NCBI GenBank assembly: GCA_937864815.1
Contig: CALMJY010000173.1
Span: forward strand, 687-64,686
Length of the DNA stretch: 64,000 nt
Reading direction: 5' to 3'
From: an uncultured Bacteroidota bacterium
GTDB taxonomy: Bacteria; Bacteroidota; Bacteroidia; Bacteroidales; VadinHA17
Part shown: piece after piece, positions 2,665-24,387 of the stretch
Position numbering within the stretch: the stretch's first letter is position 1
How the letters are laid out: every line of letters begins with the position of its first letter
The notes under the pieces: model-generated
Database searches by the model: none
What the model saw: the letters and a program-made list of their open reading frames with translations, nothing else
What the model was told of the DNA's origin: nothing
Program-made: the position numbers and the translations under genes

Positions 2665-3591
2665 TTATTTAAATCTTAAATTACTTTGGAAGTAATCGTT
2701 TTTGTCTTTTATAATGCAATCCTTTGTGATCTGACCGGTTATCAAAGGCGATAAAGGATCATGTTTCAAAATGTTATTTTTTACAGCGGTTAGACTGTAA
2801 TTTGCATAACAATAGAGGCAATTATGACTGCAGGTGTTATATTCTCCAATATCTGTGCTTTCTATACAGCCACAAGCATTTCTTTGATATTTGTCTTTAC
2901 TTGCTTTTATTTTATAGCCAATAATTCTTTCAATCAAGTCTTGATCGACACAATGGCCATGTTCAAAACCGAAATCCATTAGGTCAATATCTTCAGAGCA
3001 GGTTTCAATTTTTAAGTCATAAAGTCCTGTAGCATTTTTAAACCCATGACTAAGTTCGATTATGTCATGATTATTGGGTACCCTTGCTTCAAGCGTCTTT
3101 ATATTCTTCTCACATTTTTTATATAAATCCAAAAAGCTGATTATGCATTTTTCAGTATAGGGGGATAATATTTCTGCTAAATGGTTGAAGTATTTTATAT
3201 GATATTTAATGTCCATTTTTCTTGTAAGGAAGATCGGATCATATCGCCAAATAACTTTACTTTTCCCGATCTTCTGAGATAATTCAATAAATGTTTTAAT
3301 AATCTGGACTTTTTTAGCAACTCTCAATTCAATTGATGAATCATAAGGATTTAAGGTAAATTGGAAATAATATTTATAGTCTTTTAATTCTTCGAGTCTG
3401 GATATTATATTTTTAGGATTTTTAGTCCAAAACACAATACAGTCTATTTTGTTTGGATTTAGATCTATACGTGAAAGTAGTTTACTGTTAAATGGATTTC
3501 TAACTAATACAAATTGCTCTTTTATTCTATTTAGAAACCAATCAGAATAAAAGGCAGGTATATCGGTTCTCCGGCTGGCGCTGATTATCAT
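2665..3591 (-). CDS. DUF1848-family protein with a C-terminal radical-SAM-like Cys cluster
   Basis: It starts MIISASRRTDIPAFYSDWF, the DUF1848 hallmark as I recall it. The C-terminus reads CGCIESTDIGEYNTCSHNCLYCYA and contains CX3CX2C. The likely start is 3591, overlapping the upstream stop as TAATG; the ORF track extends to 3636. Confidence 0.8.
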   Translation of the reverse strand: MIISASRRTDIPAFYSDWFLNRIKEQFVLVRNPFNSKLLSRIDLNPNKIDCIVFWTKNPKNIISRLEELKDYKYYFQFTLNPYDSSIELRVAKKVQIIKTFIELSQKIGKSKVIWRYDPIFLTRKMDIKYHIKYFNHLAEILSPYTEKCIISFLDLYKKCEKNIKTLEARVPNNHDIIELSHGFKNATGLYDLKIETCSEDIDLMDFGFEHGHCVDQDLIERIIGYKIKASKDKYQRNACGCIESTDIGEYNTCSHNCLYCYANYSLTAVKNNILKHDPLSPLITGQITKDCIIKDKNDYFQSNLRFK

Positions 3592-5623: not shown

Positions 5624-6790
5624 TTATGTTAGTTTTAAATGTCTTCGCTTGAAAATTATTCCTCCAATTATGAAATAAAAAATCGTTAAAACAATAATCG
5701 AAATGATTTCGGGAATTATACTCGACACATCCATATTCATTATCAATGTTTTGTTTAGCGCTGAAATGGCGTGTGTCGGGGTCATTAATCCTTGAATATT
5801 AACTGAATAACCTGCTATTGTAAACAAGGCCTCACTTTTTAACGGGAAAGCAGCACCGGTAAAAAACATAAATAAGAACATAGGAAAGTTACCAACAACC
5901 AAAACTTCATTGGATGATTTTGTTATGGCTGCAATTATCAGACTAAAAGAAATAATTGACAAACTGGTTAAGCTGGCGATTAAAATCATAATTACAAATG
6001 AACCTTCATACTTAAAACCAAGCATAATCGCTGTAAGCAAAGTCAATAAAACCGAGATAACCCCAACTAGTAACTGAACAGAACTTATTCCTGCCAAAAA
6101 CTGAAAAACACTCAACTTTGAAAGTTTCAACCGCATAATGGTTTTGTTTTCAACTTCTGATACAAATGCAATACTTGCTGTAAACATTAACATTATTAAT
6201 GATACAATAAGAATACCCGGCACCATCATATCGAAACCACTTGCTGTTGCCGAAGTTCCTAATGCCGTTTCTTTCAGATTGACTATTCTTTTGTTATTAG
6301 TTATTTGCAATGCGTATTCATTTACTATTTCGTTTGCCCAAACGGCACTAATCAAATAATTTGTATTAGACAAATCACCGATAAATTCAACATTAACAAG
6401 CGAAGTACTGTCTGAAAGTTTTCGGTTTAGCAACGATTGAGAAAAAACAGTATCAATAATTATCAAAGCATCGGCTTTTTTGTTTTTCAATCTCTCAATA
6501 CCTTCTGTCCTGTTTGATGCTTCATGTACTGTAAATGGGAAAACAACACTATCTGTTTTGAAATTTTTAAAATATCCTATCAATTCATTACCGTAGTTTA
6601 TAGTTTGTCCCTTAACAAAAGCTCCTTTGTCACTATTGGCAATCAAAACTGTATATTGAGGTTTTGATGTTTCCGTTATCAGAAAATAAACGAAAATAAA
6701 AAATGGCCCCATTGATAATGAAAGCAAAAGTACCCAATAGCTTCTGATTTGCTCTTTCAGACTTTTTAAAATTATGCTAATTGTTTTCAT
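5624..6790 (-). CDS. ABC-2 type transporter permease
   Basis: It is 388 aa with an N-terminal TM segment, a large extracytoplasmic loop and a C-terminal cluster of TM segments. It overlaps the ATPase gene by 4 nt. Confidence 0.8.
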   Translation of the reverse strand: MKTISIILKSLKEQIRSYWVLLLSLSMGPFFIFVYFLITETSKPQYTVLIANSDKGAFVKGQTINYGNELIGYFKNFKTDSVVFPFTVHEASNRTEGIERLKNKKADALIIIDTVFSQSLLNRKLSDSTSLVNVEFIGDLSNTNYLISAVWANEIVNEYALQITNNKRIVNLKETALGTSATASGFDMMVPGILIVSLIMLMFTASIAFVSEVENKTIMRLKLSKLSVFQFLAGISSVQLLVGVISVLLTLLTAIMLGFKYEGSFVIMILIASLTSLSIISFSLIIAAITKSSNEVLVVGNFPMFLFMFFTGAAFPLKSEALFTIAGYSVNIQGLMTPTHAISALNKTLIMNMDVSSIIPEIISIIVLTIFYFIIGGIIFKRRHLKLT

Positions 6791-8020: not shown

Positions 8021-10960
8021 TTATTGCAAATATTCAGATATTACCGAGATCAGCTTTTTCCTGTCGAATGGTTTTGAAATGAATCCCGAACAACCTGATC
8101 CAATTGCCTTTTCCCTGTCATCCGCAAAAGCTGTCTGGGCTATTATCGGTACTTTGATTCCTGCTTCGCGAATCAGTCTGGTTGCCGTATACCCATCCAT
8201 CTCAGGCATTTTAATATCCATGAGTATAAGATCTATATCCTTCCTGCTCAAAGCAAGGTTAAGAGCTTCTTTCCCATTTGAAGCTCTGTGGACTTTAATA
8301 TTTGTGGATGATAGGAGATAGGCTATCAGTTTAAAATTACTGTCAATATCCTCTGCCACCAGGATATTCTTTGTTTCGGGAAATACATAATCCGGTTTCA
8401 TTGATTCAACGGTTACGGGGACTGACTTTTCTACCGATTTTTCAAATGGGATTGTAAAAAAGAATGTGGCGCCATTTCCCTGCTCTGAGGATAACCATAT
8501 TCTGCCTCCGAGGAGTTCAACATAGGCTTTGGATATGGCAAGTCCAAGTCCGGTCCCTTCGTATGTTCTTGATTCACTGTATTGTATCTGATAGAATCTG
8601 TCAAATATCCGCTCATGATACTCTTTTGGGATACCAATTCCGGTATCCGACACGCTGAATTCAAGAAATTTATCGGTTTTCCTGCAGGAAATAGTCACAG
8701 AACCTGAAATGGTAAACTTAAACGCATTATTTAGCAGGTTTAAAATAATCTGTTTTAGTTTTGTTGAATCAATCATTACTTTAGAATCAGTTACTGAGAG
8801 TCGGGACTCGCAAACCAGGGTGATTCTTTTTTCTCTTGCTTTCGGTAACAGCTGATTACAAAGATTATTCAACAAGAGATTTATGTCGGTCTCGGTTTTA
8901 TGGATTTTTACCAGGTTGGCTTCAATGTTCGATATATCAACAATATCGGAAATAATTTCCAGCAGGTGGTTGCTGCTTTGAATAATAGTCTCAATATGAG
9001 ATTGCCGTGTCTGTGAGTCCAGTACTGGTTCTCCAAGCATTGATGCAAACCCCACAATTGCATTCATAGGAGTTCTGATTTCATGGGAGATATTATGCAA
9101 AAAGGCAGTTTTCAGCCTGTCGCTTTCCTCAGCTTTTTCCTTTGCTTTTATCAATTCATATTCATACTCTTTTCTTTCTGAGATATCACGCATACTGCCG
9201 ATTATCTTTTCTGGTTTGCCCTCGTCATCCAGAATAACTTTAGATGATATGGAACAGGGGACCAAAGAGCAATCTTTATTATTAAGTAAGATTTCAAAAT
9301 CAGTGACATAGCCTTCCCTTTTCAACTTAGTAAGCAATGAATGTCTTGTACTCTGATCATGATAGAAATCAGACATATATCTTCCGATCAGATCATTTCT
9401 GCTGTACTGGCCCTTTGACAGGAGAGTTATGGATGGACTTACATCCATTATTATTCCATCGAAAGTAGTCTCAAAGTACAGGTCCGTTACATTATCGAAA
9501 ATCTGATGATATTTCTTTTCGTTTTCTCTTATTTTCTTCTCAGTAATGTAACGGTCAGTAATATCACGAGCCGATGAAAGAGCACCGGTAGTTTTGTCAT
9601 GTGTATCCCTGAGCACACGCCACCACCACGTAAGGAGCTTCTCTTCACCATCATGTCGTCGTTGCCAGCTATCAAAATTAAGTTCATTCTTTGTCCCGTT
9701 AAAAATTGGCTGGAAAAGCTTATAAGTATCCTGCTCACCAACAAAAAAGGATTCAGCACTCTTCCCCACAACATCGTTGCCGAAGAATTCAAGACCTGAT
9801 TTATTGGCCCAGGTAAATATTTTATCATTATCGACTTCCATAATTATATTAGGAATGGATGAAAGAATAACCTCCTGACGGTAAAGAAGATTCTTTATCT
9901 TTTCTTCTGCCTGTCTGCGCTCGGTTATATCTTCAAAGGTAGTGTAGACCTGGTAAGGTTTGCTCTCTCCTGACCTGAACAGAGGAATAGCATTGATATT
10001 TATCCAGGTGTAGCCGTCGAGCAATGGATTAAAAATTCCCATCACCACATTGTGAACCTCTCTTCCTGTGGAAAGTGCCTCGATGGAAGGATGCTTGTTC
10101 CCAGGAAAATCAGAGCCATCATCATGGATGGATTTCCAGCGGGGATCCATGGAAGTTCTTCCCTGCATCTGATCGAATGTCAGACCCAGGATTCGTTCAG
10201 CAGCCGGATTAGCTGAGAAGATATGCCCGTCAGCATTCTGATATACAACACCTTGAACCATTGTTTCAAACATCCTGCGGAGCTTTTCCTCGCTTGACGT
10301 GAGCTTTTCAGCAATCTCGTTACTCAGCCTGATCTTATCTTTAAGATCAGATGTACGATCTTCAACGATTGATTCGAGCTTTTCATTTAAAAGCCTGAGT
10401 TCCTCCTGCGTTCTGATCAGCTTTTCATTCTGCTGTATTGCACCTTCATAAATATTCACCAGCAGATTAATAATTTTGTGCTGCTCAGTTTGTATGGACC
10501 TTTTCTTCCCCTTAAACAATATTTTAGTGTCGAAAGGCACTTTACCCCCATTTTTAATATCACCCCCTGACAGGAACTTGCTTATCTGCGACAAGAGGTA
10601 CCTCTCGTTGTAAGGCTTGGTAATGAAGCTGTCGGCGCCGCATGAAAGACCTTTTAAAATCTCCTCCGGATCAGACAGCCCGGTAAGTAGAATTACGTGA
10701 ATATTTTCAGTTCTTTTATCCGACTTGATTTTATTGCATAGTTCATATCCATCCATTTCAGGCATAACGATATCAGAGATAATGATAGACGTCAGTCTTT
10801 CAGAAATAATGCTTAGAGCCTTCTTTCCATTCGCGGCAACCGCTACTTTGTAATTATTATTCTCAAGCAGATATTTTAGCTGAGCTGCCTGGGTAGGGCT
10901 GTCCTCGGCAATAAGGATGTCAGTCTTTGCCGACTTGGTTTTATGCACCTGCCTTTTCAT
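8021..10960 (-). CDS. Hybrid sensor histidine kinase/response regulator (REC-coiled coil-PAS x3-HisKA-HATPase-REC)
   Basis: It has an N-terminal REC (DILIAEDSP..DIVMPEMDGY), H-box FLHNISHEIRTPMNAI, G-box GTGLGLAISK and a C-terminal REC (LMDIKMPEMDGY). Confidence 0.9.
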   Translation of the reverse strand: MKRQVHKTKSAKTDILIAEDSPTQAAQLKYLLENNNYKVAVAANGKKALSIISERLTSIIISDIVMPEMDGYELCNKIKSDKRTENIHVILLTGLSDPEEILKGLSCGADSFITKPYNERYLLSQISKFLSGGDIKNGGKVPFDTKILFKGKKRSIQTEQHKIINLLVNIYEGAIQQNEKLIRTQEELRLLNEKLESIVEDRTSDLKDKIRLSNEIAEKLTSSEEKLRRMFETMVQGVVYQNADGHIFSANPAAERILGLTFDQMQGRTSMDPRWKSIHDDGSDFPGNKHPSIEALSTGREVHNVVMGIFNPLLDGYTWININAIPLFRSGESKPYQVYTTFEDITERRQAEEKIKNLLYRQEVILSSIPNIIMEVDNDKIFTWANKSGLEFFGNDVVGKSAESFFVGEQDTYKLFQPIFNGTKNELNFDSWQRRHDGEEKLLTWWWRVLRDTHDKTTGALSSARDITDRYITEKKIRENEKKYHQIFDNVTDLYFETTFDGIIMDVSPSITLLSKGQYSRNDLIGRYMSDFYHDQSTRHSLLTKLKREGYVTDFEILLNNKDCSLVPCSISSKVILDDEGKPEKIIGSMRDISERKEYEYELIKAKEKAEESDRLKTAFLHNISHEIRTPMNAIVGFASMLGEPVLDSQTRQSHIETIIQSSNHLLEIISDIVDISNIEANLVKIHKTETDINLLLNNLCNQLLPKAREKRITLVCESRLSVTDSKVMIDSTKLKQIILNLLNNAFKFTISGSVTISCRKTDKFLEFSVSDTGIGIPKEYHERIFDRFYQIQYSESRTYEGTGLGLAISKAYVELLGGRIWLSSEQGNGATFFFTIPFEKSVEKSVPVTVESMKPDYVFPETKNILVAEDIDSNFKLIAYLLSSTNIKVHRASNGKEALNLALSRKDIDLILMDIKMPEMDGYTATRLIREAGIKVPIIAQTAFADDREKAIGSGCSGFISKPFDRKKLISVISEYLQ

Positions 10961-15053: not shown

Positions 15054-16100
15054 CTATTTTTTGGAACCTGATTTAATAAGTATCTCAACAATCTTTTCCG
15101 GAGAAAATGCATGGTCGGCAGCGCCAATTTTCAGAGCCTCGCCGGGCATCCCGAATACAACCGAGCTTTCCTCGTTCTGAACAATTGTCAATGCCCCTTT
15201 TTCTTTCATTTCTTTCAGTTCCCCTGCTCCGTCCGTACCCATGCCTGTAAGCAGGATTCCCACGGCATTTGGTCCGAAATTCTGAGCGACAGTGCGGAAA
15301 AGATAGCTGACAGAAGGTCTTAATCCATGTTCAGGCGGGCCACTGGTTAACTTAATTATTTTTCTCCTGTCAATTCCCATTTGATAATTATCCGGAGCAA
15401 TATAACCAATCCCTGCCCGGGCCTCTTCGCCGTCTTCAGCGATTTTCAGCCTGATACCAGAAGTCTTCGACAGCCATTCCTTAAACCCGGTTAAGAAACC
15501 TGCAGTTATATGCTGAACGATAAGAACCGGCACCGGCAGATCAGCCGGCAGCCCTGAAAGAATTATTTCAAGGGCAGTCGGGCCTCCTGTTGAAGCGCCG
15601 ATTGCGATGATCTCAATCCCTGACATCCCGGTCTCAAGTGTCTGTTCGAGACGAAGAGGTTTTGCCTGTTTATTCCGGCCTCTTGGGAAACGTTTTACCA
15701 CTTTTACTTCCGACATCAGCTTGACGGTTTGTATCAGCTCCATACGTAAAGCAGCGAAATCGGGATTTTCAAATCCCGGAGGACAAAGAACAACTGCCAG
15801 GGCGCCGGCTTCAAGAGATTTGAATGTACCCGCCACTTCTTTTGTCGTGGCGCTTCCGCTTACAATAATTACAGGGGTAGGGACAGTCTCCATGATCAAA
15901 CGGGTAGCCTCATAACCGTCTATTCCCGGCATATGTATATCCATGGTGATCACGTCCGGCTTCTTTGTCTTTGCCTGTTCAATTGCCTCAGCGCCGGAAG
16001 CAGCCAGACCCACAACACTGATATCAGGATCGGAAGAAAGAAGGTGAGCAAGGAATTCACGCTGAACCTTTGAGTCATCAACTATAAGAGCTTTGATCAT
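15054..16100 (-). CDS. cheB: Chemotaxis response regulator protein-glutamate methylesterase
   Basis: It has REC (ALIVDDS..MDIHMPGIDGY) plus a CheB esterase domain (GASTGGP, TGMGTDGA). Confidence 0.92.
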   Translation of the reverse strand: MIKALIVDDSKVQREFLAHLLSSDPDISVVGLAASGAEAIEQAKTKKPDVITMDIHMPGIDGYEATRLIMETVPTPVIIVSGSATTKEVAGTFKSLEAGALAVVLCPPGFENPDFAALRMELIQTVKLMSEVKVVKRFPRGRNKQAKPLRLEQTLETGMSGIEIIAIGASTGGPTALEIILSGLPADLPVPVLIVQHITAGFLTGFKEWLSKTSGIRLKIAEDGEEARAGIGYIAPDNYQMGIDRRKIIKLTSGPPEHGLRPSVSYLFRTVAQNFGPNAVGILLTGMGTDGAGELKEMKEKGALTIVQNEESSVVFGMPGEALKIGAADHAFSPEKIVEILIKSGSKK

Positions 16101-16133
16101 AACTTTTTCGTGTCACTTGTTACTTATTATTAC

Positions 16134-16205
16134 GGCGCAATGGCGCAAAGGCGCATGGGCGCAATGGTGTAAATATGCGACTGAGCCGCTGAGCCGTTGT
16201 GCCGT
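16134..16205. repeat. 8-nt microsatellite pair ('solo' bracket): (GGCGCAAN)x4, 16-nt degenerate spacer, (TGAGCCGY/TGTGCCGT)x3
   Basis: It has period-8 tandem units. They are the reverse complement of the two arrays that bracket the four-helix-bundle gene at 23152..23756. It lies between the cheA stop codon (2 nt away) and the cheB start codon. Confidence 0.9.
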
Positions 16206-16207
16206 CT

Positions 16208-18526
16208 TCATATCAACCTCCTAATAATTTCCAACAAATTTGTCTGGTCGAAGCTGCGTTTAACAATATATGCATCGGCACCGACCTCAATTCCCAGTTC
16301 ACGATCCTCGCGAGATTCAAGAGCTGTTACTAGGACAACCGGTATTTCACTTAGTTTCCTGTCGTTCCTTATTTTTGCAGTCAGTTCAAATCCGTTCATC
16401 CTTGGCATATCTACATCAGAAACAATCAGATCGAATCCTTCCATCCGCGCTTTAGTGAAAGCATCGGTCCCATCAATAGCTGTAGATACTTGATATCCTG
16501 CAGTTTCCAGTATGTTCTTCAACAGAGCCCTGGCAGTAACAGAATCCTCAGCAACAAGGATTTTCGCTGATTTTTCAGGAGTAATCCCGGCAGCAACAGG
16601 TCTACTGACCTTTTCTTGTGCACTTATTGATGATTTTATTAAATCGGGGACATATAATACAGGCACGACGTTTCCTGAACCCAGCACTGTGGCCCCTGAA
16701 ATATTCTTAACCCTGGTAAGAAGCTTTCCAAGGTTCTTTACAAGCACCTGCCGTTCATCAAGCACATCATCAACTCTGAATGCAACCACATCATCACCTG
16801 AGGTCAGAACAACTATACAGATCTGATCGGAACTCTTCGATGAAAGCTCTGTAGTTTTATTTCCTGGTTCCTGAAGACCCAGCACATTTCCAAGATCGGC
16901 CATCGGGATTACCTTTTTATCAAAACTGATAGTATCATGATTCTCAACAGTTTTAATCTCTCCGGATTCTGTCCTTAACACCCGAACTACATTAACAGAG
17001 GGAAGAATGAACATATATTCGCCGGTCTTCACAAGAATCCCCCTGAATGTGGCAAGCGTAACAGGAAGAAGTATATGAAAAGAAGTTCCCTTACTTTTTT
17101 CCGTCCTGACACTTACTTTACCATTAAGCTTTTCGACTTTTTCGCTTACTATTGACAGACCCAGGCCGCGGCCCGAGATATCTGTTATAACAGAGCTGGT
17201 CGAAACTCCGGACTTAAAGATCAGGGAAATAATCTCATCACGATTAAGATTTTCTGCAGCTTCGGCTGAAATAACGCCCGATCTGACAGCAGCTTTAAGA
17301 ACATTCTCAGTATCGATACCTTTACCGTCATCCGACAAAACGATTTCAATCATATCGCTTCCCCTGGCTTTGAATTCAAGATTTATTGTGCCAGACGGAG
17401 GCTTGTTTTGTTCTGTCCGTTCATGAGGTTTTCCTATACCATGGTCAAGACTGTTACGTATGAGATGCAGCAAAGGATCTTTAAGATCTTCAAGGATACG
17501 TTTATCGACCTCAAGTTCCATACCGGTAATATTAAATTTTACCTCTTTATTATGTTCATGAGAGATATCCCTGACCATGGAAGGAAAGGATTCAACAAGA
17601 GACGAGACCGGGAGCATGAGAATCTGTTTTACCTCCCCGAGATGGTCATTGGTCAGACGGTTAAAAGTATATTGATCCTTTTCGATTGAATGCTGTAATT
17701 CGTTGAGTCGGTTTTCCATTTCGGACAGACAGTTCCCTGCAAATTCATGATACTCATCATGTATCATTTTAGCTGTTTCCGGCACATCGATGCTGTATTT
17801 TGATAGTTGAGCTTTGAATCCGGTAACTCTGACATTGACGTCTTTCAGTTCATTTAGCCGCTGATCAAAGGATATTTTTGTCTGGAGCAATTCTTCTGAT
17901 TGTAACAGAAGGGGATCGAGTCTTGAAACAGGGATCCGGACCACTTTGGCCATGGCAGGTTCATAGCTTTCAGCTACTCCTGAGACTTTATTTTTTTCTG
18001 TTTCACTGACAATAACTTTTTCTTCAGTTTGCGGCTCGCCACTAAAATCAGGGTACTCTTTTCCGTGGGTGTCTGAAGGAGATTCTTCTGCCGCCTTCTT
18101 TAATTGATTGATTATATCCTTGTGTATTTGCCGCTCTGCAGGTGTTTTCACAATCCCATCTGTTGAGAGCAGCCTGGTTAAAATGTCGATTGCTTTTAAC
18201 AGGATATCGAAGAGCCGGGGAGATAAAACGATATCTTTTCTTTTCAGGGCAGCAAAAAGACTTTCAAACGGGTGGCAGACCGATTCAATTTCTTTCTGAT
18301 CGACAGAACGGGCCGCCCCTTTCAAACTGTGCACTTCGCGATACATATTTTCAATGAGTTCTGCAGCACGTTTTTCCGGCGGTTTCTTTTCCAGCTCAGT
18401 AAGACCTGCCGACAATATGCGCAGATGTTCTTCCGCCTCAATCCTGAAAGTTTCCCTGATCCGTTTTAGAAAATCTTCATCCATTTTATTCATTATATCC
18501 TGTTTAGATTTTGTACTGTTCAACAA
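16208..18526 (-). CDS. cheA: Chemotaxis histidine kinase CheA with a C-terminal receiver (WspE/FrzE-like)
   Basis: It has HPt [10 protein letters not shown], HATPase GRGLGLSIV, a CheW-like domain and a C-terminal REC ([18 protein letters not shown]). The true start is probably Met12 (18493), which would avoid overlap with mcp. Confidence 0.92.
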
Positions 18527-22997: not shown

Positions 22998-23151
22998 ATC
23001 GAATCAGTTATTATTTATCCCGGGACCAGGTTTTTCATGCTTCCCGGGAAATACAATGTTAGTAAATGCAGACAGTGTAAGATATAGTAATTTAGCCTGT
23101 TAGCATGTAGGGGAAGGATGATTTTGTTGTAGGGGAAAGATGACATGGATG

Positions 23152-23207
23152 GCTCAACGGCACAACGGCTCAACGGCATAACGGCTCAACGGCATAACGG
23201 CTCAGCG
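23152..23207. repeat. 8-nt microsatellite (GCTCAACG/GCAYAACG)x7
   Basis: It is a perfect period-8 tandem array. It is enclosed by the 8-bp inverted pair TGTTAGCA (23098-23105) / TGCTAACA (23262-23269). Confidence 0.92.
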
Positions 23208-23298
23208 GCAAGATTACAGTAAATAACGAATTTAAAATATAAGGTTATTTTTATACTTTAGTGCTAACATATTCATTACTAATTTTAATCGCTGCAAA

Positions 23299-23652
23299 AT
23301 GGGAAATTTCCAAAAACTTCGTGTTTGGCAAATAGCCAAAGATCTTGCTGTTAAAATCTACAGGTTAACGCAAAATCAAAAATTTTCAAGGGATCGTGGA
23401 TTTAAAGATCAGATTCAAAGATCCGCAGTCAGTATTCCTTCAAATATTTCTGAGGGTGATGAATTAGAAACTGACAAGCAATCAGTTCGTCATTTCTATA
23501 TTGCTAAAGGATCTGCAGCGGAATTATTGACTCAGATAATTATTGGATATGAAGTCGGTTATATAATTAAAAATGATGCTGATCAACTGATTGAGGAATG
23601 TAAGATCATTTCTGTTATGTTGACAAAACTAATTCGCGCCAGAAGTACCTGA
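23299..23652 (+). CDS. Four-helix-bundle protein ('23S rRNA intervening sequence protein' / Avd-like family)
   Basis: It is 117 aa with GNFQKLRVWQIAKDLAVKIYRLT..FSRDRGFKDQIQRSAVSIPSNISEG, typical of this family. It is the only convincing + strand gene in the first 30 kb. Confidence 0.85.
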   Translation: MGNFQKLRVWQIAKDLAVKIYRLTQNQKFSRDRGFKDQIQRSAVSIPSNISEGDELETDKQSVRHFYIAKGSAAELLTQIIIGYEVGYIIKNDADQLIEECKIISVMLTKLIRARST

Positions 23653-23660
23653 TTCTTTTG

Positions 23661-23756
23661 CCTGCGCCCTTGCGCCTTTGCGCCGCTGCGCCTTTGCGCC
23701 TTTGCGCCATTACGCCCTTGCGCCCTTGCGCCTTTGCGCCCTTGCGCCCTTGCGCC
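23661..23756. repeat. 8-nt microsatellite (YTTGCGCC)x12
   Basis: It is a period-8 tandem array. It starts 8 nt after the four-helix-bundle stop codon and ends 1 nt before the convergent RR stop codon. Confidence 0.92.
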
Positions 23757-23757
23757 G

Positions 23758-24387
23758 TCATTCTATCATATTATTCCTTATAGCATATATCGTCAGCTCG
23801 GCATTATTCTTCATGCCCATTTTCTCAAGAATTCTGATTCGGTATGTGCTTACTGTTTTATCGGAAATAAAGATTTGCTTCGCGATTTCAGTAACGGATT
23901 TCCCTTTTGCCAGCATAAGCATCACCTGGAATTCTCTCTCAGAGAGTTTATCATGAGGTTTACCGGCATCTTCTCCGTATCCGTTAAAAGCGATTTTCTC
24001 AGCTAAGGAAGCCGTAACATATCTTCCACCCGATGCGATTTTTCTTATTGCAAGAGCTAATTCTTCAGATGCTGTGTCTTTCGAAAGGTATCCTGATGCG
24101 CCAAGGTGAAACGCCCTGATGGCATATTGCTCCTGGGGATAGACGCTTAACATAAGGACATGAATTTTCAGATCATGATCCCTGATGTTTCTTAGAACAT
24201 CCAGTCCGTTAATACCGGGCATAGCAACATCAAGGACCACGAGGTCATAATTTCCAACTTTGATTTTTGTCCAGGCTTCATCCCCGGTTACAGCTTCATC
24301 TATCCGGCATATTTCGTCAAGAGACTTTAATATCTGCTTAAGTCCCTCACGGACTATTGAATGATCGTCGGCAATAAGAACATTCAT
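23758..24387 (-). CDS. NarL/FixJ-family response regulator (REC + LuxR HTH)
   Basis: It has VLIADDH..LDVAMPGINGL and LSEREFQVMLMLAKGKSVTEIAKQIFISDKTVSTYRIRILEKMG. Confidence 0.92.
   Translation of the reverse strand: MNVLIADDHSIVREGLKQILKSLDEICRIDEAVTGDEAWTKIKVGNYDLVVLDVAMPGINGLDVLRNIRDHDLKIHVLMLSVYPQEQYAIRAFHLGASGYLSKDTASEELALAIRKIASGGRYVTASLAEKIAFNGYGEDAGKPHDKLSEREFQVMLMLAKGKSVTEIAKQIFISDKTVSTYRIRILEKMGMKNNAELTIYAIRNNMIE

Follow-up and report, generated by a model that had tools for sequence, protein, structure and literature searches.

A gene-less hairpin of inverted octamer arrays at the cheA-cheB junction of a Bacteroidales bacterium belongs to a family of four-helix-bundle gene cassettes

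The stretch of DNA analysed here, called the window throughout, comprises 64,000 nucleotides of contig CALMJY010000173.1 from an uncultured bacterium of the order Bacteroidales, and between its chemotaxis genes cheA and cheB it carries a 72-nt array of octamers, to which we refer as the solo array. Our view, to which we give a probability of about 60%, is that this array forms the core of a 111-nt non-autonomous hairpin element, similar to the intervening sequences (IVSs) of rRNA, that this element uncouples cheA from cheB, and that it is a gene-less member of a family of cassettes. Such a cassette has the form of a purine-rich tandem array, a leader, a gene for a four-helix-bundle (4HB) protein (S23p, the 23S rRNA IVS protein) and a complementary tandem array, and one of them is present in the same window at 23.2-23.8 kb. 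The solo array is real and is a member of a coherent and widespread element family; its mode of spread and its effect on the che operon are what we infer from the comparisons described below.

The solo array is a single imperfect inverted repeat with the same unit as the 4HB cassette

Read on the minus strand from 16205 to 16134, the solo array consists of three octamers, a 16-nt loop and four further octamers (Table 1), and it is separated by 2 nt from the stop codon of cheA and by 33 nt from the start codon of cheB. All of this agrees with the initial annotation, which had also regarded the two halves of the array as two functionally linked repeat types. The latter idea had to be abandoned, as the array is one imperfect inverted repeat with the two halves as its arms. 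When reverse-complemented, the unit of the right arm (R) reads GGCGCAAN, and that of the left arm (L) reads GGC[A/T]CAAC, with a complementarity of about 73-76%; therefore, both arms are made of one unit (GGCNCAAN) in opposite orientations, and the 72 nt constitute an imperfect hairpin. An exact-seed search for inverted repeats gave no match on the solo array, because no perfect run in it reaches 6 nt.

Period-8 arrays were detected by Tandem Repeats Finder (TRF) at only four places in the window, namely at 16134-16167, 16182-16205, 23151-23210 and 23663-23756. Likewise, patterns of three tandem TGCGCCNN or CGGCNCAN units matched only the solo locus and the 23.2-23.8 kb locus, and 100 dinucleotide-preserving shuffles gave zero matches. 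Apart from the unit, the two loci have in common a centre-base asymmetry (A/T in L, G in the reverse complement of R) and the terminal variant ...ACGGCTCAGCGGC. Since an inverted repeat reads alike on both strands, the centre base is the only mark by which the solo array can be oriented, and orientation by purine richness was dropped for this reason. The centre base does give the polarity proposed earlier, with the same octamers in the same order, inverted relative to the 23-kb locus. The earlier link between the solo array and the arrays flanking the 4HB gene was also borne out, in the sense that all of them represent one element family. The distance between the two arrays of the filled locus, previously put at about 450 nt, is 452 nt; its inverted-repeat arms, 59 nt long and 76% complementary, are 472 nt apart. 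A comparison of the solo loop with the ends of the filled cassette revealed weak low-complexity likeness only, from which we draw no claim.

Table 1. Features of the solo element and of the filled cassette in the window (repeat units of the arrays are written (GGCACAAC)n and (TTGCGCCN)n)
Feature	Position	Strand	Remarks
Solo element
CheA	16208-18526	-	772 aa, C-terminal receiver (REC) domain; Pfam
Left TATGA copy	16208..16212	-	Includes cheA stop TGA (16210-16208) and orphaned ancestral start ATG (16211-16209)
Whole 111-nt insertion	16097..16207	-	As compared to the GATATGATCAAAG junction of the ancestor; includes one of the two (T)ATGA copies
5' arm (L)	16182..16205	-	Three octamers, ACGGCACA ACGGCTCA GCGGCTCA, of the GGCNCAAN family
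Loop	16166..16181	-	16 nt, GTCGCATATTTACACC
3' arm (R)	16134..16165	-	ATTGCGCC CATGCGCC TTTGCGCC ATTGCGCC, the L unit inverted
A-rich tail	16102..16133	-	GTAATAATAAGTAACAAGTGACACGAAAAAGT, from R arm to cheB start
32-codon open reading frame	16113..16211	-	From the orphaned ATG across the hairpin; stop 12 nt before cheB ATG
Right TATGA copy	16097..16101	-	Includes current cheB start ATG (16100-16098)
CheB	15054-16100	-	Pfam
Filled cassette
5' arm	23151..23210	+	7.5 octamers GGC[A/T][C/T]AAC; TRF
Leader, type A	23211..23298	+	...GTTATTTTTATACTTTAGTGCTAAC...CGCTGCAAAATG
4HB protein gene	23299..23652	+	117 aa; PF05635 / TIGR02436, E 2e-32
3' arm	23663..23756	+	About 12 octamers TTGCGCCN; TRF

The cheA-cheB junction occurs in empty, gene-less, decayed and filled states

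The initial annotation had proposed to compare orthologous cheA-cheB spacers for filled and empty states. A metagenome scan with CheB added 80 loci (related loci are given here by their L numbers), and the junction was measurable in 74 loci; empty, gene-less, decayed and 4HB-filled states were all found among them. In seven of the 74 junctions (L003, L052, L083, L087, L093, L095 and L102) the stop codon of cheA overlaps the start codon of cheB in the sequence ATGA, and in L003 and L052 the junction reads TTGATATGATCAAAG, with no spacer at all. This is the true empty state, and the solo array, for which the term "empty site" had been suggested, is itself an insertion. In the window, 111 extra nt follow the ATGA and terminate again in TATGA (the alignment gap being 106 nt); the element is placed exactly at the ancestral stop/start overlap, which it destroys. 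The (T)ATGA flanks the insert at either end in the window, as it does in 10 of the 11 inserts that come after a TGA stop in orthologues. The stop of cheA is thereby retained and cheB receives a start, the duplicated bases being stop and start codons that selection would keep anyway. The insert of L042, of the same unit family as in the window, likewise follows ATGA and ends in ...ATGA, and has a different length.

Gene-less hairpins of the window's unit family occupy the junction, with differing unit counts, in L096, L084, L042, L091, L092, L082 and L086. Those of L089 (TTGCTGG/CAAGCAA), L117 (GGACGAG/CGTCC), L118, L142 and L155 are made of other units. In L109, L121 and L124 the junction is filled, with a 4HB open reading frame (ORF) co-oriented with the operon between complementary arrays, and the solo locus L117 is the sister of filled L121, the GGACGA unit being common to both. 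L115 appears as a decayed cassette, in which 14 codons of the 4HB N-terminus and a C-rich array are left. In almost every case the arrays start 0-8 nt past the upstream stop codon.

Repeat number and unit sequence change quickly, and both arms change together. The expected variation in copy number between close relatives, characteristic of contingency microsatellites, was indeed observed: the solo array has 3+4 units, as compared to about 6+7 in L096, whose CheB is 91% identical. The solo loop matches that of L096 (ATATTTACACC) in part and is not conserved in the remaining orthologues. A switch of the phase-variation type would act on a coding frame or a promoter spacer, whereas the solo array is intercistronic and lies outside both reading frames.

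In a bootstrapped neighbour-joining tree of CheA and CheB, empty and occupied junctions are interleaved, with bootstrap values of 97-100 for the groups (L003 empty, L089 solo), (L093 empty, (L082, L092)) and (L081, L083 empty, L094). The junction has therefore changed its state several times.

Many occupied junctions have homologous tails between the R arm and the cheB ATG (AAATAACAAGTAAC...), and the A-rich tail of the window, which contains AAGTAAC/AACAAGT-type heptamers, is no exception. In L089 and L086 the tails merge into CCAGCAA/AACAAGT arrays. Analogous hairpins are present at the mcp|cheA junction of L003, L042 and L052 (those of L003 and L042 being gene-less), with none at this junction in the window, and the L003 one is followed by a similar tail. 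On one hand, such homology could result from a single ancient insertion, after which the arrays turned over and precise loss took place repeatedly; on the other hand, the tail could be part of the mobile unit. The tail of L042 matches the leader that follows the L arm in the filled cassette of the window (ATTACA..ATAACGAATTTAAA), and a cassette arranged as L - R' - leader - gene - R is found in L019; L042 therefore looks like a remnant of such a cassette.

Two further observations concern the inserts and their tails. A third array, composed of recurring (T/C)AGCAAC / AAGTAAC heptamers, stands right after the pyrimidine arm of otherwise unrelated hairpins (L014 ~5813-5835, L028 14888-14962, L030 14871-14940, the L089 spacer, and the tails of L086, L091, L092, L094 and the window, 16102-16133); these heptamers resemble the GTTGCTYN consensus of Geobacter class-1 sites. 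A second family of junction inserts, found in L047 and L088, consists of CCCCCC...TTTAGGGGGG(A/C)(T/A)GGGGGGCAA palindromes (C6...G6 type), located at cheA|cheB (~796-862) and mcp|cheA (~3150-3200) of L047 and in the cheA|cheB spacer of L088. These share the insertion points of the octamer hairpins and have the opposite arm polarity, with the C-rich arm first.

Many 4HB genes are flanked by inverted tandem arrays with covarying arms

At E <= 1e-10, the 4HB protein of the window has 2,149 relatives, a number that refers to this one subfamily, and many of them lie on contigs of 1-2 kb. The protein matches only PF05635/TIGR02436 (PF05635 being the sole Pfam match), with no HUH/Y1 transposase domain, and its nearest solved relative is XCC0516 (PDB 2GSC). 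Species-representative genomes were scanned as well and yielded 77 loci, almost all of them from metagenome-assembled genomes of Bacteroidales from peat, fen and soil. We took a census of tandem arrays of period 6-10 around the 94 4HB genes with complete 300-nt flanks, and found arrays on both sides of 65 genes, on one side of 21 and on neither side of 8, while random 300-nt windows of the same loci contained an array in 9.6% of cases. The two arrays formed an inverted pair in 46 of the 65 two-sided cassettes. Among the 41 inverted pairs listed, units differ widely (GATCAGG, GCTGGTT, GGTATGC, AGAGACTA, TGCAGGTCA, GGCGCAAC and others), and the arms match, the upstream unit being the reverse complement of the downstream one. 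Selection on pairing could account for this covariation, as could templated correction between the arms. Wobble-compatible arm mismatches favoured neither RNA strand (14 sense vs 12 antisense in 41 cassettes). Of 48 cassettes, 40 have a purine-rich upstream unit, and the units tend to be more alike where the 4HB proteins are more alike (Mantel r = 0.38, 0 of 2000 permutations).

Gene-less inverted pairs with a gap under 100 nt number 28 in the 1.14 Mb of related loci, but only one lies in the 64-kb window. Arrays of periods 7 and 8 are common in general, with 305 and 244 TRF rows, respectively, in the same 1.14 Mb.

Cassette leaders contain a Bacteroidetes-type TAnnTTTG promoter box downstream of the 5' arm. 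One group, the type B leaders, was noted upstream of the 4HB start in L007, L011, L016 (~5880-6000), L017, L018, L019, L025, L031 (~9910-9988) and L033. Here the -7 box TAnnTTTG is followed, about 10-20 nt on, by a small stem-loop with an invariant GTGGAAT loop and a covarying stem (ACATGTGGAATTGT, TATACAAGTGGAATTGTATA, CTATACGTGTGGAATCGTATAG...), which has no Rfam match and may be an undescribed 5'-untranslated-region motif of 4HB genes.

The filled cassette of the window lies between genes for a cheY-like and a LuxR-type regulator, its 3' arm stopping 1 nt (23757) short of the stop codon (23758-23760) of the convergent LuxR-type response regulator. Several genome loci have the same che cluster with a 4HB gene at the equivalent place (window 23151-23756; ~10001-10351 in each relative), and L003, L004 and L068 can be set against L047, L052, L055 and L071 in this respect. 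The 4HB gene at this site is 89-92% identical to that of the window in some genomes and 55-59% in others; in the latter CheB is equally distant (about 71%), and the arrays differ too, which suggests cassette replacement at a fixed site. The window also matches the ENA metagenome contig ERZ27245621 k141_530195. In comparison to an ENA contig with an identical 4HB protein, it has four substitutions (22258, 23310, 23322 and 23325), three of which are synonymous and clustered within the first 27 nt of the 4HB gene; this could reflect strain variation or gene conversion from a paralogue.

Predicted folding and a possible effect on the che transcript

In the che transcript the imperfect hairpin is located 5 nt after the cheA stop and is followed by the A-rich tail of 32-33 nt. 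Folding was predicted at -31 kcal/mol when a 96-nt cut was used (z -2.3) and at -30.8 kcal/mol for the whole 110-nt spacer (z -1.7), and the predicted stem is made of 3-bp helices broken by single mismatches at regular spacing. The plus-strand RNA folds slightly better (-37.4 vs -31 kcal/mol), which is uninformative. Among the junction inserts, 10 of 11 fold as hairpins, with z from -1.4 to -5.1. No intrinsic (rho-independent) terminator pattern was found in 15800-16500, where GUAAUAAUAAG comes after the hairpin, and at Rfam gathering thresholds there was no family in the window (no rRNA) and only a tRNA in eight related loci.

We propose that the element reached the junction either by insertion or as the remainder of a cassette whose 4HB gene was deleted. 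An excision footprint and a landing pad, the two options considered originally, are indistinguishable for the window copy, as no filled state is found in the window's clade; a deleted cassette and an inserted miniature would both be gene-less members of the family. A hairpin between direct repeats of 5-6 bp is a classical substrate for slippage deletion, and precise loss by slippage between the flanking TATGA copies would be a plausible route back to the empty state. Once in place, the stem-loop (about -31 kcal/mol) would remove the stop/start translational coupling of cheA and cheB. It might also act as a processing or stability boundary uncoupling CheA output from that of CheB, by analogy with the rRNA IVSs cleaved by RNase III and with the hairpins of repetitive extragenic palindromes (REPs). 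The 32-codon frame of the orphaned ATG may in turn let ribosomes melt the hairpin and restart 12 nt later; this frame is probably not a gene, and might serve ribosomes as a way across the hairpin. As to the element itself, a selfish or tolerated nature is more probable than a design for chemotaxis control.

Evidence against the proposed element and alternative explanations

Several facts weigh against this proposal. The 16-nt solo loop contains no recognisable remnant of a 4HB gene or leader, and there is no filled junction in the window's own clade, the filled ones belonging to a distant clade in which the units are different. In many gene-less hairpins the units bear no relation to those of the nearest cassette (0.62 against 0.57, a weak enrichment). 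The TATGA duplication may be a matter of selection rather than of mechanism, if only those inserts survive which keep both the stop and the start. We know of no mobilising enzyme, and the 4HB protein is devoid of transposase features. As to folding, the solo hairpin is modestly more stable than shuffles and weak for its G+C content, the L092 insert folds no better than chance, and a stem of 3-bp helices with periodic mismatches should, on paper, be a poor RNase III substrate. Finally, as the promoter box of the cassettes is located downstream of the 5' arm, the cassette's own transcript would lack that arm, which weakens a purely RNA-level role and leaves room for a role at the DNA level or in protein binding.

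One may therefore ask whether the gene-less hairpins are primary and REP-like, with 4HB genes or insertion-sequence (IS) elements inserting secondarily between or beside their arms, so that the cheA-cheB copy would be an unoccupied target, or landing pad. We regard this as unlikely. Gene-less hairpins occur in large numbers, with a greater diversity of units than is seen in the cassettes nearby. The arrangements L - gene - L' - R (L121, L029 and L020) and L - R' - leader - gene - R (L019) are what a gene beside a complete hairpin should look like, although the former could result either from recombination within arrays or from a gene landing beside a hairpin. Moreover, tandem pairs on opposite strands in operon junctions of Geobacter metallireducens often have IS110/IS481 elements between or beside them (PMC2700814). 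However, the L115 locus represents a cassette decaying in place towards the gene-less state, the Mantel correlation is expected if gene and arrays descend together, and the hairpin loops have no common conserved attachment sequence.

It is also conceivable, and in our opinion improbable, that the octamers are iterated putative sites for a DNA- or RNA-binding protein, either the pentameric 4HB protein or a nucleoid protein, which would make the cheA-cheB copy regulatory. Avd, a relative of the 4HB family, binds nucleic acid. Within units, the paired positions (GGC, CAA) are constant and variation falls on the mismatched ones, each unit family goes along with a 4HB subfamily, and the purine-rich upstream arm implies a fixed orientation of units relative to the centre; for the analogous Geobacter pairs, sites of the global regulators IHF/HU were proposed by the authors (PMC2700814). 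On the other hand, the unit at the orthologous junction differs completely between lineages and the site is absent in many of them, which does not fit a conserved cheB regulator.

A coincidence, in which slippage produced both arrays in place and mutational bias or chance made them similar to the 23.2-23.8 kb locus, seems very improbable: arrays of period 7/8 are indeed frequent in these genomes and their unit numbers change quickly, but the shuffles gave no match, arm order, centre-base asymmetry and terminal variant are all as in the filled locus, and the whole 111 nt, including the non-repetitive tail, are absent from relatives with an intact ATGA overlap. That the 32-codon ORF encodes a functional product is hardly credible, despite its ATG in the ATGA overlap, the AGGAGG 6 nt upstream and the frame open through the array, since the arrays contain no stop codons in any frame and are thus bound to be open, Shine-Dalgarno sites are little used in Bacteroidetes, the orthologous frames end after 4 to 51 codons with unrelated sequences (each 8-nt unit gained or lost shifts the frame), and a frame ending in an ATGA overlap with cheB, seen in 3 of 9 orthologues, is the chance expectation.

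Comparison with known repeat elements

The gene-less IVS-like element which we propose can be compared to several known systems. The IVSs of 23S rRNA are located inside a transcript and are regarded as selfish, and short ORF-less IVSs occur in other bacteria, in parallel to the filled and gene-less forms described here. In Leptospira and Coxiella burnetii, as in the filled cassettes, terminal inverted repeats pair into a stem whose loop contains an S23p/PF05635 ORF (PMC4990558), which amounts to one architecture at different host sites; the Coxiella IVS has a 28-bp inverted-repeat stem, with two to three GACAGAT heptamers in its 5' part that vary in number between strains, and is cleaved by RNase III (PMC4990558). 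The arms of the solo array (about 73% complementary) also pair into a stem, far less perfect than that of Coxiella: stems here consist wholly of tandem 7-9-nt units with periodic mismatches, in contrast to a near-perfect 28-bp stem. Unlike those IVSs, the elements described here reside in mRNA operon junctions or intergenic DNA (the solo copy between cheA and cheB) and not in helix 25/45 of 23S rRNA, and the solo copy has no ORF in its loop, the ORF being present in the 23-kb cassette, L109, L121 and L124.

Geobacter metallireducens has 24, 21 and 8 pairs (classes 1-3) of tandem octa- or heptanucleotide repeats on opposite strands, some of them in operon junctions such as nifD|nifK, trpC|trpB2 and proB|proA, often with IS110/IS481 elements between them, and read as global regulator sites (PMC2700814). 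With three to five tandem 7-9-nt repeats per strand, variable distance and intergenic or operon-junction location, this description fits the solo array (3 + 4 octamers, 16 nt apart), and the consensus GTTGCTYN resembles the GTTGCTG/TAGCAAC arrays of L028, L030 and L089. The differences are that they belong to another phylum, that they were described as protein-binding sites with IS elements often in between, and that no link to 4HB genes is mentioned in the text or, as far as read, in Table S4 (PMC2700814).

The cassettes also resemble the REPIN/RAYT system (PMC3116915, PMC3337134), in which REP hairpin doublets (REPINs) accompany a REP-associated tyrosine transposase (RAYT): one gene is flanked by inverted short repeats, gene-less hairpin doublets lie in intergenic space (many copies in REPIN/RAYT genomes; 28 in the 1.14 Mb of related loci here, with only one in the window), and each gene lineage has its own repeat sequence, inherited vertically with turnover. 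However, the gene flanked here encodes a 117-aa helical bundle instead of an HUH/Y1 transposase, and each arm consists of very short units in tandem, in place of one palindrome of 20-40 nt. Still, it is tempting to speculate about a similar partnership without a classical transposase. In it, every 7-9-nt unit would be recognised, at the RNA or DNA level, by the 4HB lineage to which it belongs, and gene-less hairpins colonising stop-codon-proximal operon sites would be helped by the protein to spread, to persist or to be processed. We consider this quite unlikely; if it were true, the 4HB protein, encoded at a distance of 7 kb, would act in trans on the cheA-cheB copy, and a protein family would gain a function after 30 years without one.

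Miniature inverted-repeat transposable elements are likewise small and devoid of genes; their ends are inverted, their full-length relatives carry a gene, and the insertion point shows a short duplication, to which the (T)ATGA copies might correspond. Here, in contrast, the full-length relatives encode only the 4HB protein and no recognisable transposase, and the duplicated bases belong to a stop and a start codon, which selection would retain in any case. Cyanobacterial short tandemly repeated repetitive (STRR) heptamers (PMC4692102) and the TAACTGA repeats of Beggiatoaceae (PMC4679880) are also abundant intergenic arrays of 7-nt units, variable between close relatives, but they were described as direct arrays, mostly upstream of start codons, with no inverted partner or 4HB gene reported. 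In addition, 4HB genes have been seen wedged inside cas operons (PMC3936711). In the literature searched, which covered few subscription journals, we found no description of 4HB cassettes with inverted tandem arrays outside rRNA or of their gene-less operon-junction forms, and this statement is provisional.

A recurrent DNA architecture for the PF05635 family

The PF05635 family, which includes the 23S rRNA IVS protein S23p and relatives of Avd, the accessory protein of diversity-generating retroelements, is very widespread, and to our knowledge no function is known for it apart from that of Avd. It is now tied to a recurrent DNA architecture of inverted tandem arrays with covarying arms. Gene-less versions are found within operons, at the very point where stop and start codons meet, and their presence changes from one close relative to the next. 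One class of elements thereby links three scattered observations, i.e. rRNA IVSs, the paired repeats of Geobacter and the 4HB genes in cas operons. Empty, gene-less, decayed and filled states are all represented at the cheA|cheB junction, which offers a natural experiment on mobility, on IVS-like processing and on the stoichiometry of operon products. Judging from the many 4HB homologues on contigs of 1-2 kb, cassettes flanked by repeats may also be one cause of breaks in short-read assemblies.

Further observations

A 15-nt near-perfect direct repeat, GTAGGGGAAGGATGA ... GTAGGGGAAAGATGA, with its copies 7 nt apart, was noted just upstream of the L array of the filled cassette (window 23109-23145).

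A second natural series of empty, gene-less and filled states is provided by the intergenic site between a gene ending in ...VEYFRK and a gene starting with MIDRSTIERILDAA, which was seen in L046, L037, L063, L048, L054, L067, L073 and L031 and varies in form. In L046 (~10060-10070) it comprises only ~12 nt without an insert, in L063 (17066-17189) a CTCTGTG/CACAGAG hairpin is present, and in L037 (159-837) the site is occupied by a reversed 4HB cassette with AGAGACTA arrays. Other hairpin repeats, of the CGCAAAG type, are found in L067 and L031, and in L048 (~1480-1760) a masked run of N is flanked by a long inverted repeat, CCGATAGCTCCCGATAGCTA ... TAGCTATCGGGACGGGAGCTATCGG.

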